From the NCBI GenBank assembly GCA_964640195.1, contig CAZXIC010000002.1:81743-145742 (forward strand): a stretch of 64,000 bases of DNA, written 5' to 3'. The notes below the pieces were generated by a model. The model did no database searches. It saw nothing but the letters and a program-made list of their open reading frames with translations, and had not been told where the DNA came from. This DNA is from an uncultured archaeon. GTDB lineage: Archaea > Iainarchaeota > Iainarchaeia > Iainarchaeales > GCA-2688035. Position numbers and translations under genes: made by a program. Numbering within the stretch: position 1 is the first letter of the stretch; the number at the start of each line of letters is the position of its first letter. Below, piece after piece: positions 4,510 through 63,831 of the stretch.

Positions 4510-5994
4510 TTGAAAAGGGGGGTGGATTTGCACAACCTAAGATATGCAAAGGCGGCTGTAATAGGAATAGTGCTGCTGTTTGTTGCACTAAAAATCCCTG
4601 CAATGCAGTCGTTTTACATGGACAGGGATGAGCCGCTCTACGTCTGGCAGAGTCTGAGAATATACAAAGAGCCTGCGAGCATTCTGCTGCTGGAAATTAA
4701 CCGCCCCTATTATGCACTCTTTACTGCAACGGCAGCACCATTGCATGCGTTTTTCCCGCCGCAGGTTCCACTCAGGATTGTAACAATGGCATTTGCGCTG
4801 GTTGCCCTGTTCTTCACTTACTTAATCGGGAAAGAACTATTCTCTGAAAAAGCAGGTCTGGCTGCAATAGTGCTGATGTTATCTTCCCCTGCCTTTTTCT
4901 TCTATGCCGCAAGGGGCTTGCCGAGTGTGCCGCTTACAGCGCTGTCCGCAATTTTGATATATTTACTGATAACACTAAACAGAAGGCGGGCAATTCTTGC
5001 CGCTCTGACACTTGCTGCAATGTACCTGATAAAAACCACTTCAATGGTTGTACTGCCTGCGGTGGCTGTTTTTCTAATGCTCAAGTACAGGGAAAAGCTA
5101 AACAAGAAACAAATAGCTGCTGGGTTTGGGCTGCTGGCACTTCTGATTGCCTGCGCCATTGCATTCGCACCGGGCGAAATTGTAGGCGTTATCTTGAAAA
5201 CATTCAGCAAGCAGGATTGGGATGTCTTCTTTGCCATAGTTGGCCGTGGCATCATTTGGGCCCTAACAGGGACGTTCACTATCGTGTTTGCATTAGTAGG
5301 CATGCTTGAACTTAAGGGAAGGAGAGACTCCAATATTGCGCTTCTGCTGCTGTGGATTGTATTTATATCTGCCGCGTTCGCTCTGACCTTCAGGAGTTTC
5401 GTGCGCTACTATCTCCCAATAATGCCTGCTGTTGCGGTAATTGCCGGTTATGGCTTTGCAAGGTTAGCTGAAAGGGGGCTGCGGTTTGTGGCAATTCTGG
5501 CTGCAGCAGGGCTGCTCTTTTTTGCTTGGGGCTTCTACTGGGAGGCTATTTTCTGGAAAGCACCTTGGGAAAACCTCTATGCCAGGGGCTACATGCCGCT
5601 AAAGCAGGAGCGTTGGAGCGAGATGGGCCAATGGTTTGGTGAGAATGTAGGGGGAGAGGACAGGCTTATAGTCCTTTCAGAACAGTTTGTAGCAAGAACC
5701 ATCGTGCTTTCAGCAGAGCTTGGCTTGCCTGAGGCAAGCAGGCGGCTGGTTGTTAATCCAAGTAGGGGTGATTTTGAGATGCTTATCTCCCAGGCAGAAA
5801 GGGACTGCTTTGTAGTCAGGGATAGCACTTCACCCATAAGGCCTTTTGAGCAGCTGATTTGGCTTTACGCAGACACAAATGCAGAAGAATACCTTGCTTC
5901 AATGGGTTTTGAAGAAATAAAAGAGTTTCCGCCACAGGATGGCGCATTTTTCTTCAAAGAAACCTATTTCGCTTATAAAAAGTCAAAACAGTAG
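4510..5994 (+). CDS. GT-C-fold integral membrane glycosyltransferase (ArnT/PMT-like)
   Basis: About 11 predicted TM helices, an early 'DRDEPLY' acidic loop motif and a soluble C-terminal domain. This is the GT39/GT83-like layout. Confidence 0.55.
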   Translation: MKRGVDLHNLRYAKAAVIGIVLLFVALKIPAMQSFYMDRDEPLYVWQSLRIYKEPASILLLEINRPYYALFTATAAPLHAFFPPQVPLRIVTMAFALVALFFTYLIGKELFSEKAGLAAIVLMLSSPAFFFYAARGLPSVPLTALSAILIYLLITLNRRRAILAALTLAAMYLIKTTSMVVLPAVAVFLMLKYREKLNKKQIAAGFGLLALLIACAIAFAPGEIVGVILKTFSKQDWDVFFAIVGRGIIWALTGTFTIVFALVGMLELKGRRDSNIALLLLWIVFISAAFALTFRSFVRYYLPIMPAVAVIAGYGFARLAERGLRFVAILAAAGLLFFAWGFYWEAIFWKAPWENLYARGYMPLKQERWSEMGQWFGENVGGEDRLIVLSEQFVARTIVLSAELGLPEASRRLVVNPSRGDFEMLISQAERDCFVVRDSTSPIRPFEQLIWLYADTNAEEYLASMGFEEIKEFPPQDGAFFFKETYFAYKKSKQ

Positions 5995-19557: not shown

Positions 19558-20934
19558 ATGCTTACAGTGATGAAATTCGGCGGAAGCATCTTGTCAAGCG
19601 AAAGCGATTTGAGGAGAGCAGCAAAAACAGTAAAGCAGCGCTCGAAAAGGGAAAGGCTTGTGGTTGTGGCATCGGCGCTGAAAGGCGCCACTGATTCGCT
19701 TATTGCTGCAGGGTGCAGCAGCCTTGAAAACAGCAGGGCTGTTGAGAGGGAGGTTGCTGCAGTAAGGGAGAAGCACATTGCAATGCTTGCAGGCATAAAA
19801 AGCGACGAGATAAGGCTGCAAGCAGAGAAAAAGCTGCTGAGGAAGACCGCAATGCTGGAGAGGGCCTTGTACGGAATAGCCTACCTCAAGGAGCTTTCAC
19901 CGCGCTCACTTGACATCGTGCAGACAACAGGGGAGAGGATGAGCGTGCCCCTGATTGAGGCATACCTGCTGGATGCAGGTGTTGCCGCTGTTGCCCTGAG
20001 CGGAAGGAAGCACGGTATTGTGACAAACAGCGATTACGGGCAGGGCATCCCATTAATGCACGAAACGAGGAAAAGGCTGGGGAAAAAGGCAAGAAAACTG
20101 CTACATAACAAGGTCGTTGTTTTCCCGGGCTTTTTTGGTTCTGACAGGAAAGGAAACATTGTGAGCTTCGGCAGGGGCGGCAGCGATTTCAGCGCTGCAA
20201 TAGTTGCTGCAGCGCTTAACGCAGATGCGCTTGAGCTGTGGAAGGATGTTGACGGCTTTATGAGTGCAGACCCCAAAATTGTAAGGAATGCCGTGCTGTT
20301 GCCGCACCTCAGTTACGATGAAGCAGAGGAGCTCGGCTATTTCGGCGCAAAAATCATGCACCCGAAAACCGTTCTGCCCCTGAGAAAAAAAGGCATTAGA
20401 ATAGTTGTGAAGAACATTTTAAAGCCGGAAAAAGCGGGCACTATTGTAAGCGGGAGGAAACAGAGACATGAGAGGGTGATAAAGTCTATTGCAATCAAGA
20501 GAAACATTGCCTGCGTTACCCTGAGGAGCCCTGCCTTTGTCGGTCAAGCAGGGGTGCTGCAGAAGATTTTCTCGGCGATGGCAGATGCATGCGTTAGCGT
20601 TGACCTGGTTGCAACAAGCGAAACCGGCGTCAGCTTCACAATCGACGAGCAAAACATGCAGCTTGCGAGAAAGTCGGTTCCAGCAATAGACCTCTCCCTG
20701 GAGGAGGTTGCGTTTGACAGCAGCGTCGCAATGGTTGGAATGGTCGGCGAGGGGCTGAAACACACACCGGGCCTGGCAGGCAGGGTGTTCAGCTGCCTCG
20801 GGAAACACAAAATAAACGTTGAAATGATTTCCCAGGGTAGCAGTGAGATAAACATCTCTTTTCTGGTAAAGGAAAGGGATTTGGGAAAAGCAGTGAGGGC
20901 GCTGCACAGGGAAGTGTGCGGGGGCAGCAGATGA
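19558..20934 (+). CDS. lysC: Aspartate kinase
   Basis: 'MKFGGSIL' amino-acid-kinase N-terminus, 'FGRGGSDFSAA' and two C-terminal ACT-like repeats. Confidence 0.9.
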   Translation: MLTVMKFGGSILSSESDLRRAAKTVKQRSKRERLVVVASALKGATDSLIAAGCSSLENSRAVEREVAAVREKHIAMLAGIKSDEIRLQAEKKLLRKTAMLERALYGIAYLKELSPRSLDIVQTTGERMSVPLIEAYLLDAGVAAVALSGRKHGIVTNSDYGQGIPLMHETRKRLGKKARKLLHNKVVVFPGFFGSDRKGNIVSFGRGGSDFSAAIVAAALNADALELWKDVDGFMSADPKIVRNAVLLPHLSYDEAEELGYFGAKIMHPKTVLPLRKKGIRIVVKNILKPEKAGTIVSGRKQRHERVIKSIAIKRNIACVTLRSPAFVGQAGVLQKIFSAMADACVSVDLVATSETGVSFTIDEQNMQLARKSVPAIDLSLEEVAFDSSVAMVGMVGEGLKHTPGLAGRVFSCLGKHKINVEMISQGSSEINISFLVKERDLGKAVRALHREVCGGSR

Positions 20935-35953: not shown

Positions 35954-36310
35954 ATGATTGAGGTCAAGACAAAGTTCACTCCTTTCAGGCTGAAGCTGGC
36001 GCGGAAAGAGCCTGTGCAGCTGGCTGTTGAGCTGGTTAACAAAAACCCGGAAAATGCGATGCTGTCTCTGAACCTTGAACTCGGGGCGTGTTTCAGCCTG
36101 GAGAAAAGCGGTTACAAAACAGGCGCGGCTGAGCAAATCCCGGAATTGAAGCCGGGGGAAAGCAAGAAATTTTACTACGAGCTGTGGCCAAAGCACAGCA
36201 TCAGGGTTGGAGCGGCAAAAATCAGGCTAACTGTCCTAGAGCACTACCAGAACTTCAATTACGTTAAAAAAGAATACAAGAAAGGCCCTGAACTGATTGT
36301 TGAGGAATAA
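35954..36310 (+). CDS. Hypothetical beta-rich protein
   Basis: 118-aa ORF with an alternating pattern suggestive of a beta-sandwich. No motif recognised. Confidence 0.5.
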   Translation: MIEVKTKFTPFRLKLARKEPVQLAVELVNKNPENAMLSLNLELGACFSLEKSGYKTGAAEQIPELKPGESKKFYYELWPKHSIRVGAAKIRLTVLEHYQNFNYVKKEYKKGPELIVEE

Positions 36311-39411: not shown

Positions 39412-39897
39412 GTGTTGTGCAAAGAACTGCTGGGAGAAGCAGAGCTAAGGAAAAAACTTCCAGCGCTGCTGAAAACCGGCGAGCTTATACCACTGTCGAA
39501 AGTCGCGCAAGACTTGGGCTTGACTACAAGGACACTTTCCAGAAGAAAGGACGTTAAAACTGTGAAGGTGGGGGGACGCGGAGCGGGAGAACGCAGTTTC
39601 ATGATAAAAACAGATGCCGCGGAATTTAAGCGAACATACCCCGAAACTAAAATTAGAAGGAAGAAGAGTGCAGCTGTAGTTGAGCAACAGCCAGCAGGCA
39701 AGGCAATGAAAATAAGAGCGACCAAGACAACAAAGACTGTGGGGAAAAAGGCGTGGCAATGGTTTAATGCACACCGCGAATTAGTATCGCCTGCCCACAG
39801 CGAGATGCTTGAAAAAATGGTGAGGCAATGCGAGAACCTACCGCTGGAGAGATGGGATAAGGTAGTTGGGTGGCTTGAAAGGGCTTTTTTCAGATGA
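39412..39897 (+). CDS. Putative helix-turn-helix DNA-binding protein
   Basis: 'LIPLSKVAQDLGLTTRTLSRR' is an HTH-like segment (excisionase/MerR style). Basic linker and helical C-part. Confidence 0.55.
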   Translation: MLCKELLGEAELRKKLPALLKTGELIPLSKVAQDLGLTTRTLSRRKDVKTVKVGGRGAGERSFMIKTDAAEFKRTYPETKIRRKKSAAVVEQQPAGKAMKIRATKTTKTVGKKAWQWFNAHRELVSPAHSEMLEKMVRQCENLPLERWDKVVGWLERAFFR

Positions 39898-39947: not shown

Positions 39948-39979
39948 ATTGTTATGTAGCTAGAATGCTACATAATAAT
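39948..39979. repeat. 32-bp near-perfect palindrome: 13-bp inverted arms with a 6-bp spacer (recombinase-core-like)
   Basis: ATTGTTATGTAGC-TAGAAT-GCTACATAATAAT. Arms match 12/13. Lies in a convergent intergenic gap. The arm sequence recurs as half-sites downstream. Confidence 0.6.
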
Positions 39980-39981
39980 AC

Positions 39982-40185
39982 CTATATTAACCCTAACTTC
40001 TTAGCCTTTGGCAACAGCCTCATAACTTGCCTTAATTCATTTAAAAGGGCCTTTTCATCTACAGCGTTTGCAGCAAAGAGTTGTGGTTCTCGTGCTTGCT
40101 CACGTGTTAAAATGCTGAGAAGCTTGTAGGCATCAACTCTTATTTCAGCGAGGCTTCTTCCGACACCATTTTTCCACAAAAACAC
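39982..40185 (-). CDS. Small hypothetical ORF
   Basis: 67 aa. Overlaps the upstream small ORF by 46 nt in another frame, so a frameshifted single gene is possible. Confidence 0.3.
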   Translation of the reverse strand: MFLWKNGVGRSLAEIRVDAYKLLSILTREQAREPQLFAANAVDEKALLNELRQVMRLLPKAKKLGLI

Positions 40186-40349
40186 CTCAATTTGCGCTTA
40201 TCAGGCCTGCCCAAAACTTCTGCCCTGCCCAGCGCCGTAACAGCATTGGCGACTGTTTTAATATCCCTAGCCAAAACGAGTTCTCTGCCCCGTCTTGCAC
40301 GGGTCTTGTTCCGCTTTGCGGCTGAGGTTAGAGTCGCCCTTGCAGCCAT
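40140..40349 (-). CDS. Small basic hypothetical ORF
   Basis: 69 aa from the internal ATG ('MAARATLTSAAKRNKTRARRGRE...'). AT-rich TATA-like stretch about 25 nt upstream. Confidence 0.3.
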   Translation of the reverse strand: MAARATLTSAAKRNKTRARRGRELVLARDIKTVANAVTALGRAEVLGRPDKRKLRCFCGKMVSEEASLK

Positions 40350-40729
40350 TGTAAAATATTTTAGGGCATTCCAAAATAAAAACCCGCCCAAAATGGGCTT
40401 TACTTATACATAACTTATATCCCGCCCTGCCCCTGCGCCGCTCCCTTTCAAGCCACCCCTATTCCGCTATTCAATTTTTCCAGTGCGTTTTTCACATTTT
40501 TTTCAAAATTTCCGAAGGAATTTTACAGTATAATGTAGAATATGTTGTATCCTGTATGCTGTTTTTAGCCACCTCCAGAAGGCGGAAATGGCTTAAAAGC
40601 GTGAAATCAGGCCTCCTGCACTAAAATAGCTGGTTTGACCTGGCTCAACTTTGTCTGGGATGGCTTTAAATTTGAGGGAGCTGCAGAACTTGCAGCAGGG
40701 AGCGCAGGGCCCGCACGGGACGCCTTATA

Positions 40730-40749
40730 GTTATGTAGAAGTTATGGGG
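40730..40749 (+). repeat. Left copy of the cassette-flanking direct repeat
   Basis: GTTATGTAGAAGTTatGGGG. 18/20 identical to 44282-44301. Contains the TAA stop (40742-40744, minus strand) of the TcmP-like gene. Confidence 0.7.
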
Positions 40750-44281: not shown

Positions 44282-44301
44282 GTTATGTAGAAGTTTGGGG
44301 G
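44282..44301 (+). repeat. Right copy of the cassette-flanking direct repeat
   Basis: GTTATGTAGAAGTTtgGGGG, 58 nt after the B12-rSAM stop. Confidence 0.7.
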
Positions 44302-47152: not shown

Positions 47153-47578
47153 TCACACTTTAGAAATTACATGCTCTGTAAACTCATTGCCATTCCAGAT
47201 ATGCCTGGTGGTTTCATATTTCCAGCTTTTTCCCAAAAGATAATCTACTTTGAAGCCCATGTAGGTTTTATCCAGTTTTTGCGGCTTAACCTTTCCTTTT
47301 AATCCTGGAAAGGGGTCTGTCAAAAACCTGTAGACTATCTTTGATTCGCTAACTTCTGGGAATGAAACCTCAAGGCCAACGCTTTTGTCCCGTTCTCCAA
47401 CCACTCTTGCAAAGTCTCCAGGCGAGCCCTTTTCAAAACCGCTTGCATCATAGGATTTTTTTAACCCGAACCGCATGACTTTTGCGAAGAGTGCAAGGGC
47501 TTTTTCTTCCCCAAATTCTTCCTTTAAAACAAGAAAAACGTTTTCATACAAACCAAAGAAAGGATTGTTGTATCCCAT
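47153..47578 (-). CDS. Hypothetical protein
   Basis: 141 aa with globular composition. No motif recognised. Confidence 0.55.
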   Translation of the reverse strand: MGYNNPFFGLYENVFLVLKEEFGEEKALALFAKVMRFGLKKSYDASGFEKGSPGDFARVVGERDKSVGLEVSFPEVSESKIVYRFLTDPFPGLKGKVKPQKLDKTYMGFKVDYLLGKSWKYETTRHIWNGNEFTEHVISKV

Positions 47579-52075: not shown

Positions 52076-52116
52076 GTTAAGGGATTAAAGTAGCCAGGAA
52101 TCTGTTATGTAGCAGT

Positions 52117-57541: not shown

Positions 57542-57730
57542 ATTTGCCCCATAGTTTATTCACCTTATATGGGTATTTAAGGGTTATTATTGCAGGGTTG
57601 GGAACACAAGGCTCTGTTATGTATAATTTTGGTGTTTGCCTTTTTGCCTGCGGCAGCGATTAGCCTAACAGAAAATAAAAATAAAAAATTAGAAACTGTT
57701 TTGTACGGAACTTCAACTAATTGCTTAGAA

Positions 57731-61020: not shown

Positions 61021-61147
61021 TTTTTAGTACCTCCAAACGGTGAAAGGAAAAAAGTAGTATTTAAAGCTATCTTTTTAAGGTTCTGGGGGGGTGGGGGCAA
61101 CAATTCGCATTGCCCCCAAAAAAAACACGCTTGTAGTTATGTATAAG

Positions 61148-61294
61148 TTATGCTTTGTTTTTCTTTCTGTTTGCCCCAAAATTTGCGTACTTCCTATACT
61201 TCTGCATAGTCCATGCTGGGGGCTGCTTTTTCCTCAGCTTGAATTCCTCTTCAAGCAAGCGCGTTCTCAGCACTTCATCTACACCCATATCCAT
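61148..61294 (-). CDS. Small basic hypothetical ORF (48 aa, absent from the ORF track)
   Basis: ATG follows AAGGTGGAG. 'MDMGVDEVLRTRLLEEEFKLRKKQPPAWTMQKYRKYANFGANRKKNKA'. The stop abuts motif copy 61136-61147. Confidence 0.3.
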   Translation of the reverse strand: MDMGVDEVLRTRLLEEEFKLRKKQPPAWTMQKYRKYANFGANRKKNKA

Positions 61295-62215: not shown

Positions 62216-63124
62216 ATGCTGCAAAACGGAGCAGGCGCCGGTGTTGAAAAAACAAAAGAGGAAACAATAAAGGGTGGCAGCCCTGCCAACAGCGAACCCG
62301 ATGACTGGCTGCGCAGATTCAAGCAGGAGCTGATTGTAAGCGGCTACAGTGTAAGGACGCAAAAAATGTACTGCTATTACCTGCGGCAGTTCCTGCGCTC
62401 AGAGCAAAGGCCGGTTGCAGACATTGAGAGGGGTGACATAATAAGGTTCCTCGCAGAGAAAAAAGAGAAGGGAAATGCGAGCAACGCCACACTTGCACTG
62501 GCACATGCAGCATTGCGTTTCTTCTTCCACAACATATTGCATAAGAAAATTGTGGACGAAATTAAAACCCCGAAAAAAGCGAAAAAGCTGCCGGTTGTTC
62601 TGACACGGCAGGAGGTCAAGGCACTGATAACCGCGGCTAAGCCAAAAAGAAACCGGCTGATTGTGCAATTCCTGTACAGCACTGGCTGCAGGGTAAGCGA
62701 ATCTGTAAAACTACAGACCATGGACCTCAATTTAAAGGAGAGAACTGGTTTAATAAAAGGCGGCAAAGGAAACAAGGACAGGACAATCATACTGTCAAAG
62801 GAATGGATAAAAGCGGCAAAGAAATATCTGGCGAGAAAGAAAGCAAAAACCCCCTTTGTTTTCAGCAAAAAAAACGGCAAACCAATTTCTGCAGACACTG
62901 TACAGAGGATAGTCAGGGGGGCTGCAAAAAAAGCAGGCATCCAAAAAGAGGTGACGCCGCACACGCTTAGGCACAGCTATGCCACCCACCTGCTCGAGGC
63001 AGGGGAAAATATTAGAAAAATACAAGAATTGCTTGGCCATTCAAACCTCAACACAACACAAATATACACCCAGATTTCGCTGCAGGAGTTGAAAAAAGTC
63101 CAAAGCCCCTTGGATAAACTCTGA
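62216..63124 (+). CDS. xerA: Tyrosine recombinase, XerA/XerCD-like
   Basis: N-terminal SAM-like core-binding domain, 'GCRVSE' (catalytic Arg region), 'HTLRHSYATHLLEAGENIRKIQELLGHSNLNTTQIYTQ' (R-H-x-x-R..H..Y). Confidence 0.9.
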   Translation: MLQNGAGAGVEKTKEETIKGGSPANSEPDDWLRRFKQELIVSGYSVRTQKMYCYYLRQFLRSEQRPVADIERGDIIRFLAEKKEKGNASNATLALAHAALRFFFHNILHKKIVDEIKTPKKAKKLPVVLTRQEVKALITAAKPKRNRLIVQFLYSTGCRVSESVKLQTMDLNLKERTGLIKGGKGNKDRTIILSKEWIKAAKKYLARKKAKTPFVFSKKNGKPISADTVQRIVRGAAKKAGIQKEVTPHTLRHSYATHLLEAGENIRKIQELLGHSNLNTTQIYTQISLQELKKVQSPLDKL

Positions 63125-63447
63125 TTCCTTAAAAAGCCGCTAGCCCCTTGATGCAACAACAACAGGGCCCCCATACTTCAAGTATTCCACTCTGGCAACC
63201 CGGCCGCCAAATAAAATAAAAATTTCCAGTGAGAATGGAAGGGGTTTGCAAGGCGGCCCCTGGTTATGTATAAGGATGAAAAATCCCCCCACTTTAAATT
63301 TTTGGTCCACTCGAAAGGCACCGCCATTCTTTCAAGTATTTTTTATTATGTAGAATTTACTGCCGGCGCTGGTTTGCAAGACAAAAGATTTATATAGGTA
63401 AACGGGTTTAATTTAATACCAATATAACGTCCCAGGAGGAATCAAAT

Positions 63448-63741
63448 ATGACAATGCGCTTGTCAAAAATGTTTGGCATGGACATCTACACTACAGACGC
63501 AGACTACAGAGGGAAGATATTTGACTTGGTTATAAACCTTGAAAAGGGCAGAATAGAAACAATAACAACCGAGGCCCTGAAAGCGAGGACAAAACAGGAA
63601 GCAAAGAAAATTATAAGTGAGAAAAGCATCCCCTACAAAAACGTTAAATCCGCAAAGGACATCCTAATTGTCGCAGGCAAGGGGAGTGCAGCGCGCAGCG
63701 AACAGCCAGAGCCGACCTACTACCGCTACAAAAGAAGGTAA
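63448..63741 (+). CDS. PRC-barrel-domain protein
   Basis: 'LSKMFGMDIYTTDADYRGKIFDLVINLEKGRIETI' matches the PRC-barrel pattern. Canonical TTTATATA lies about 52 nt upstream. Confidence 0.6.
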   Translation: MTMRLSKMFGMDIYTTDADYRGKIFDLVINLEKGRIETITTEALKARTKQEAKKIISEKSIPYKNVKSAKDILIVAGKGSAARSEQPEPTYYRYKRR

Positions 63742-63807: not shown

Positions 63808-63831
63808 GTTATGTTTTATATTATACATAAG
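63808..63831. repeat. Second inverted-arm site with a 6-bp spacer, related to 39948-39979
   Basis: GTTATGTTT-TATATT-ATACATAAG. Arms match 7/9 as an inverted repeat. About 700 bp downstream of the recombinase gene. Confidence 0.4.

Follow-up and report, generated by a model that had tools for sequence, protein, structure and literature searches.

The locus

The window analyzed here is a 64-kb stretch of DNA (C2:81743-145742) from an uncultured archaeon of the order Iainarchaeales, whose genome is available as a 1.19-Mb assembly of 36 contigs that is 88% complete. A first-pass annotation had singled out a 32-bp palindrome, here termed P1 (Table 1), and the sequence is as it was described, with 13-bp arms matching at 12 of 13 positions around a 6-bp spacer; the inner 9 bp of the arms (TTATGTAGC/GCTACATAA) contain no mismatch. 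P1 also lies, as annotated, in a convergent intergenic gap, between the stop codons of a plus-strand ORF (39412-39897) and a minus-strand ORF (39982-40185). The HTH/excisionase-like label given to the first of these ORFs finds no support in Pfam at E ≤ 0.01. Beyond P1 lie a slot holding a single gene, copies of a short polar word related to the P1 arms, a second palindromic site (P2) and the gene of a XerA-type recombinase. A search of the window found no tRNA gene.

Table 1. Positions of P1, P2, the polar word copies and associated genes in the 64-kb window.
Feature	Positions	Strand	Sequence or remark
Word, left-arm orientation	20097-20109	-	Inside an ORF, antisense to it
P1	39948-39979		ATTGTTATGTAGC-TAGAAT-GCTACATAATAAT
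P1, conserved core	39952-39975		TTATGTAG-CTAGAATG-CTACATAA
Single-gene slot, P1 to innermost word	39982-40457	-	Frameshifted homologue of a ~160-aa protein
Word, innermost left	40402-40414	+	ACTTATACATAAC on + strand; points at P2
Palindrome abutting P2	40506-40523		AAATTTCCGAAGGAATTT
P2, canonical-type dif candidate	40523-40550		TTACAGTATAA-TGTAGA-ATATGTTGTAT
Word, innermost right	40730-40742	+	GTTATGTAGAAGT on +, ACTTCTACATAAC on -; points at P2
Word, right-arm orientation	44282-44294	+
Word, right-arm orientation	52104-52116	+	GTTATGTAGCAGT
Word, one mismatch, right-arm orientation	57616-57628	+
Word, right-arm orientation	61136-61148	+
xerA orthologue	62216-63124	+	Phage_integrase and SAM-like N domains
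Word, one mismatch	63263-63275	+	Directly downstream of xerA, as in G019

How unusual is such a repeat? Counting inverted repeats with 13-bp arms, at most one mismatch and a 4-10-bp spacer, the window holds three of the quality of P1, and five shuffles of it hold none. By itself P1 is therefore unusual rather than unique, and the case for it rests on the comparison between genomes. In that comparison of sequences it is conservation that sets P1 apart from the other inverted repeats of the window.

Conservation of P1

The conserved part of P1 consists of 8-9-bp arms around a spacer of 7 bp in relatives and 8 bp here; the 13-6-13 parse is valid in this genome alone. An exact match to TTATGTAG-N4-10-CTACATAA occurs in 26 of the 151 genomes of the order, one copy in each and spread over at least ten families, against 1/151 for the reversed control. 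With up to one mismatch and an N7 spacer, the core is found in 57 of 151 genomes, mostly as a single copy (reversed control, 4/151). P1 is thus conserved in relatives and, as expected of a dif site, it is intergenic and usually single-copy; G018, G004 and a few further genomes have more than one. Its asymmetric spacer, often TTAAATG, keeps the same direction with respect to P2.

An exact-pattern scan of all species in GTDB returns 114 stretches, with ~139 expected by chance. Among the 80 matches listed, at least 30 fall in Iainarchaeum/Diapherotrites-type archaea, where ~0.1 would be expected; the bacterial matches are noise and the signal is limited to these archaea. Exact-pattern scans of metagenome contigs gave no P1 match. 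One groundwater Iainarchaeum MAG, JACQPB01 (L047, L069, L074), has three exact P1 cores on three contigs and with different spacers, which could reflect a strain mixture or real multiple copies.

Are the arms conserved as sequence or as a stem? The latter would be expected of a bidirectional terminator or RNA hairpin, an option raised in the first-pass annotation. The convergent stops that flank P1 here fit such an element, as does the single-stranded fold, a 13-bp stem at -8.2 kcal/mol (z = -3.6). However, the commonest change in the arms among the 57 genomes, G to T at position 8, affects one arm only and is never compensated; the pair is broken, which indicates that the arms are conserved as sequence and not as a stem. 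Nor is the transcriptional context kept between relatives, and there is one P1 per genome rather than one per operon. P1 lacks a T-tract of the archaeal-termination type, and Rfam yields nothing relevant either in the window (gathering threshold) or at five of the loci described below (E ≤ 1). A terminator is hardly credible in the face of these features.

The two halves of P1 are not equivalent. The half on the P2 side, AATGCTACATAAT, is an almost complete and correctly oriented copy of the polar word described below, while the half far from P2 is a bare inverted 8-9-mer (a 9-mer in this genome). Among relatives the P2-side half has the consensus AATGCTACATAA, one base off the word variant ACTGCTACATAA and again in the right orientation for its side, and the G/T wobble at position 8 of the arms is also seen in the word (TTATGTAK). 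The ATAA ends of P1 point outward, as do its GTT and AAC ends, and the site measures 23-32 bp. An integron attC site was rejected on this polarity and size.

A polar word converging on the locus

The arm of P1 forms the core of a word of 11-13 nt, ACTTMTACATAAC, which reads on the strand opposite to the arm. As TTATGTA[GT][AC]AG it has 32 copies in the genome (reversed control, 2), and the 13-mer GTTATGTAG[AC]AGT has 6 exact copies and 13 with one mismatch (reversed control, 0). Most of 30 relatives carry 10-36 copies, with 0-4 for the control, and the density is about one per 40 kb. It is therefore the half-site, and not the palindrome, that occurs many times genome-wide. Within ORFs the word occurs in two reading frames, 13 of the 18 copies being antisense, and intergenic copies keep no fixed distance or relation to gene starts or stops, so that the word acts at the level of DNA rather than as a promoter or terminator. 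Two other identities were discarded: a promoter or TATA element, as the intergenic k-mers of the lineage are of the TTTAAATA type and the word has no fixed spacing to genes, and a conserved peptide, given the two frames and the mostly antisense reading.

The strand of the word depends on the side of P2. In four long contigs 49 of 52 copies are concordant (p = 5e-12), and 41 of 44 when the innermost pairs are left out. On this contig six of the seven copies left of ~40.5 kb are on the minus strand and all five exact copies to the right are on the plus strand; the corresponding figures are 7/7 and 3/3 for G004:C14, 5/5 and 5/6 for G019:C2, and 14/15 and 4/4 for G034, a complete genome in one contig. 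In the ACTTMTACATAAC reading the copies point toward one another, and their density peaks by the convergence point: the 24 kb to its right hold eight copies, three of them variants with one or two mismatches. Over-represented, frame-independent and switching strand at dif, the word in these respects behaves as KOPS-type sequences do. The half-sites at 40730, 44282 and 52104, which had been read as bounding downstream gene blocks, are real; they are, though, copies of this genome-wide word and not block-specific boundaries, and none has an inverted partner.

Could the word mark the direction of replication or segregation independently of Xer, with P1 as part of an origin, a fork barrier or a centromere-like site? 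The words do cluster and flip strand at the module formed by P1, P2 and the innermost words. Fork traps of the Ter/Tus type and the inverted-repeat terminator of B. subtilis are likewise opposed polar sites near the terminus. In G034, moreover, one of the two orc1/cdc6 genes (G034:C1, 839789-840895) precedes the module by 124 kb and the other (1127072-1128109) follows it by 163 kb, which puts the module (P2 at ~964.0 kb) near their midpoint. Yet the word does not change polarity at these genes, and the other strand switch of G034 falls somewhere in 46-224 kb. No orc1/cdc6 gene adjoins the module, the nearest in this genome being 112 kb off, and there is no AT-rich unwinding element. GC skew, which had been put forward as a way to place the terminus, merely tracks gene orientation and gives no independent origin or terminus signal. 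The strand switch itself is occupied by a dif-type site, with xerA. An origin at the module was rejected, orc1/cdc6 genes being 90-210 kb off, and we regard the wider reading, barrier and centromere-like site included, as improbable.

P2 and XerA

P2 is placed between the innermost opposed words, i.e., at the strand switch, 543 bp from P1 here; across loci P1 is 0.45-0.6 kb off the switch. P1 is therefore not where a dif site would be expected: the polarized words invert around P2, and P1 is outside the nearer copy. The P2 equivalents at 14 loci of relatives have an 11-6-11 layout with the consensus nnCGGTATAA-TNNNNA-TTATACCGnn; TAA-N6-TTA is intact in 12 of the 14, and 6-10 of the 11 arm positions are palindromic. 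Known archaeal dif sites have the same layout, as in P. abyssi (ATTGGATATAA-TCGGCC-TTATATCTAAA; PMC2958812) and T. kodakarensis (TTTTGATATAA-TGTACC-TTATATGACAA; PMC11840125), and TAA-N6-8-TTA is their most conserved feature (PMC11840125). TAA-N6-8-TTA is absent from P1, and so is an 11-6-11 layout. Judged by sequence, P2 and not P1 bears the archaeal dif hallmarks, and its arms resemble those of the Pyrococcus and Thermococcus dif sites.

The P2 of this genome aligns with that of G019 (TTGACGTATAA-TGGTTA-TTATACGACAT) but is degenerate, its arms matching at 7 of 11 positions and its right arm having ATA instead of TTA (ATATGTTGTAT here vs. TTATACYGnnn in relatives). The site may tolerate the change, the consensus of the MAG may be in error, or dif function may have shifted elsewhere. 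No better canonical dif emerged when the whole 88%-complete assembly was scanned for ATAA-N6-TTAT palindromes. The word (..CTACATAA) and the P2 arms (..CGGTATAA) have only C...ATAA in common, so little that XerA need not read both. The 18-bp palindrome abutting P2 has an equivalent in G019 (AAATTCCCTAAGGGATTT; L001 ~4612-4629) and, in family f1, the block TTTTTTGAAAAGTTCTAGAGGTRGA; it is possibly a further protein site of the module.

The recombinase that the annotation had placed at 62216-63124 is confirmed as a XerA orthologue by Pfam (Phage_integrase, 1e-46, plus the SAM-like N domain) and by its best solved relatives, XerA of P. abyssi (4A8E, 8e-56) and of T. acidophilum (5HXY). It is by far the best of four tyrosine recombinases in the genome, the other three being longer and located elsewhere, and one orthologue is present in each of six relatives examined. 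In all six long contigs xerA is 0.6-42 kb from P2, with a variable interval that contains accessory genes.

Some further features accompany the recombinase gene. The order xerA, one word copy, ~100-aa PRC-barrel-like gene is common to the window (62216-63741) and G019 (L001 5229-6624), and downstream of the PRC-barrel-like gene the window has a weak inverted pair of the word core (CTGTTATGT-N10-ACATAAGCAG, 63808-63831). A 141-aa gene (47153-47578, minus strand) is homologous to G019 L001 4096-4530 (plus strand), beside dif on the other side, which suggests an inversion around dif.

Architecture of the module and its gene slot

The order P1, 385-480 bp, innermost word, P2, opposed word is seen at 12 loci, in four 20-kb regions, in the complete genome G034 and at about a dozen further GTDB loci. 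The P1 spacing of 385-480 bp holds at all loci with enough flanking DNA, the words flank P2 at roughly 70-250 bp, and in six of six genomes P1 is on the side of P2 away from xerA (xerA...P2...P1). In G019 xerA, P2 and 17 word copies are kept and the P1 position holds the P2-proximal arm only, and in many word-bearing genomes (G019, G028, G029, G007) P1 is missing or one-armed and hence would be dispensable; nearly all genomes compared are incomplete MAGs, and some of these absences may come from that.

The slot between P1 and the innermost word has a near-constant length (~0.4 kb) and a changing content. In G001 and G009 it encodes the ~160-aa protein; in G018, G154 and G013 the product is cyclophilin-like, and in G011 and, by DNA similarity, probably G004 it is a basic protein. 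The slot genes are unrelated between genera, and even within genus g5. Since the length is kept though the content is not, a spacing constraint is suggested, which fits an architectural role. In the window the upper limit of the slot crosses the word copy at 40402-40414, and the ORF matches the 159-aa protein of G001 (L012) in two different frames, so either the gene is frameshifted here or the assembly contains an error. If the N-terminal region of this gene is real, the polar word forms part of its coding sequence (G-Y-V-E-V). On the outer side of P1, the window encodes a 118-aa protein without Pfam match (35954-36310), homologues of which lie immediately beyond P1 in two further families (L002, L013); the genes for a 915-aa Cys-repeat surface protein and the HTH-like protein thus appear to be inserted between the 118-aa gene and P1 in this genome.

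The setting of P1 bears on the suggestion of a dimeric-regulator operator. A palindrome with invariant arms and a free spacer would suit a dimeric transcription factor acting on the neighboring gene, and in some relatives P1 is immediately upstream of the slot gene or of the next gene. The one-mismatch copies in G018 and G004, which overlie the predicted ribosome-binding region and GTG start of surface-protein genes, also favor an operator. However, the genes that flank the dif-linked P1, and their orientation, vary: P1 is 3' of both neighbors here; G018, G154 and G013 have it 5' of the slot gene, and G009 has it between one 3' and one 5' end. What is conserved is the distance and orientation relative to P2 and the word. 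Control of a neighboring gene is accordingly quite improbable; the idea of a dimeric-protein site survives in another form, as a possible site for a protein of chromosome architecture.

The one-mismatch sites themselves (TTATGTAGCAnnGTGATACATAA) number four in G018 and one in G004 (L020 1717-1739 and 10055-10077; L021 5052; L022 5748; L024 4664). They lie 12 nt past AGGAG and overlap the likely GTG start of paralogous genes for giant (>1000 aa) surface proteins, within 600-bp repeats that are 80-87% identical, and their spacers are all different.

Is P1 a crossover site?

A true tyrosine-recombinase crossover at P1 could be the working dif of this genome, or an attachment or cassette site at which the adjacent slot is exchanged by XerA or another integrase. 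Part of the Xer/dif reading of the first-pass annotation stands. P1 belongs to a XerA/dif neighborhood, is usually single-copy, is conserved across many families and is linked to xerA in 6/6 genomes; it also has the look of a core, with inverted 9-13-bp arms and an asymmetric 7-8-bp spacer in a fixed orientation relative to its neighbors. The slot gene has been swapped between genera and inside g5, and P1 and the word copy are the exact points at which blastn homology between relatives begins and ends, as would fit a recombination junction too. Accessory genes also occupy the variable xerA-dif interval, and the degenerate P2 leaves room for P1 as the active site in this genome.

What finds no support is the identity of P1 as the core. 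The hallmarks it lacks, TAA-N6-8-TTA and the 11-6-11 layout, are found together with the polarity switch at P2. If the P1 arm is of the Xer type, its outward ATAA ends are the reverse of every known Xer core, and G019, with xerA and P2 present, retains a single P1 arm. On these grounds P1 is probably not the crossover site. The half-sites proposed to bound gene blocks, being without inverted partners, cannot be cores; no second site of the P1 or P2 type closes the accessory region, and the P1-like copies of G018, with four different spacers, could not recombine with one another. Homology breaks of the kind observed would also be given by a conserved island amid fast-diverging flanks, and the near-constant slot length points to a spacing constraint. 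Taken together, we consider a crossover at P1 unlikely, though of the alternatives it is the most probable.

P1 as a proposed accessory docking site

The reading we prefer, to which we would give roughly an even chance, is that P1 is an accessory protein-docking site of the XerA/dif module of Iainarchaeales (DPANN) and not its crossover site. The module would comprise the canonical-type dif P2, two opposed words, a one-gene slot of ~0.4 kb and, away from xerA, P1, in which a near-complete, correctly oriented word is abutted by an inverted 8-9-bp word core. Two molecules of a word-reading factor would bind P1 head-to-head. This reader may be XerA in a non-catalytic mode, as XerD at the XDS of B. 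subtilis, or another protein. In T. kodakarensis an SMC boundary arises in the DNA surrounding dif and requires neither XerA nor dif itself (PMC11840125), which makes a non-Xer reader a real possibility.

What could such a site be for? As an element held at a fixed distance, P1 would be architectural, a boundary or one edge of the dif zone. A candidate role is to halt or unload a DNA motor or SMC; alternatively, P1 could be an accessory site that biases XerA toward resolution without FtsK, which archaea are reported to lack (PMC2958812). Both the protein that would bind P1 and the function of the site are what we infer from the sequence, copy number, conservation, offset, orientation, polarity and xerA linkage of P1. 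More tentatively, the ~30 polar half-sites might steer the reader toward dif and the double site ~0.4-0.5 kb off might serve as a one-way gate, an unloading point or a topological filter, with the slot and the xerA-dif interval capturing genes; we hold this extended scheme to be possible but doubtful.

How archaea direct Xer recombination and locate dif without FtsK is an open question (PMC2958812, PMC8371274), and in the literature that could be searched no paper treats XerA or dif of DPANN or Diapherotrites. The module of this lineage is compact and defined by sequence: dif with words on both sides and, at a constant offset, the conserved double site. Should the words and P1 be bound by XerA, the XDS idea of a recombinase as a chromosome-architecture factor would extend from Firmicutes to archaea; should P1 instead prove recombinogenic, gene turnover beside dif would be driven by a second site of the Xer type.

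Comparison with known systems

The closest relatives are the archaeal XerA/dif systems of P. abyssi, T. kodakarensis and T. acidophilum (PMC2958812, PMC11840125). The recombinase is of the same family (best PDB matches 4A8E and 5HXY), each chromosome has a single conserved inverted-repeat site in intergenic DNA to which polarized sequences point, and P2 matches the 11-6-11, TAA-N6-TTA layout. P1 departs from them in its 8-9-bp arms, its 7-8-bp spacer, the missing TAA-N-TTA and its offset of 0.45-0.6 kb from the switch. The polar element here is a specific 11-13-mer with about one copy per 40 kb, whereas theirs is the 4-mer ASPS, and xerA is linked to dif, unlike in Thermococcales.

The KOPS and SRS of FtsK and SpoIIIE are likewise over-represented, frame-independent words that flip strand at dif and are denser nearby. 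The word described here is longer, 10-100 times rarer, AT-rich and recombinase-arm-like, and archaea are reported to lack FtsK (PMC2958812). Differently to P1, KOPS systems have no palindromic double copy beside dif.

Integron attC/attI sites and Acinetobacter pdif modules also combine variable genes beside a tyrosine recombinase gene with short, related bounding sites. An attC site has the structure R''(RYYYAAC)-L''...L'-R'(GTTRRRY), with the AAC and GTT ends facing inward, over 55-140 bp. P1 has no such R''/L''/L'/R' structure. The boundaries here are single half-sites in one orientation, in contrast to the full 28-bp sites of pdif modules, which alternate in orientation.

The word core TACATAA equals the inner portion of the XerD arms of bacteria (B. 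subtilis AGTTTACATAA). The XDS of B. subtilis are described as a full XerD arm and a short XerD core in inverted orientation around a 5-6-bp center; XerD binds them in the absence of XerC, and they unload SMC (PMC9226527, citing Karaboja 2021; PMC11840125). The XDS at the terminus of B. subtilis and S. aureus resemble P1 in being recombinase-arm-like sites outside dif, made of a full arm and a short inverted core, and they are used for binding (SMC unloading) rather than recombination, as is proposed for P1. P1 itself is a near-complete word and an inverted 8-9-mer around a 7-8-bp center, with the polarity everted: the CATAA/TTATG ends face the center in XDS, and they face outward in P1, so that the analogy is structural and not exact. 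The word is also unlike the arms of the lineage's own dif (P2), and the ~30 half-sites here are dispersed with a chromosome-wide polarity, compared with eight terminus-local XDS.

In the plasmid Xer sites cer and psi, accessory sequences that bind PepA, ArgR or ArcA abut the core (~180 bp). The likeness lies in a stretch of DNA that binds protein and flanks a Xer core on one side, a short and constant distance away, an arrangement that could give resolution selectivity without FtsK. The accessory DNA of cer and psi differs in abutting the core directly, and it is not known to have a palindromic repeat of a genome-wide word. Weighed by analogy, an accessory role of the cer/psi type would be just as compatible with P1 as a role of the XDS type.
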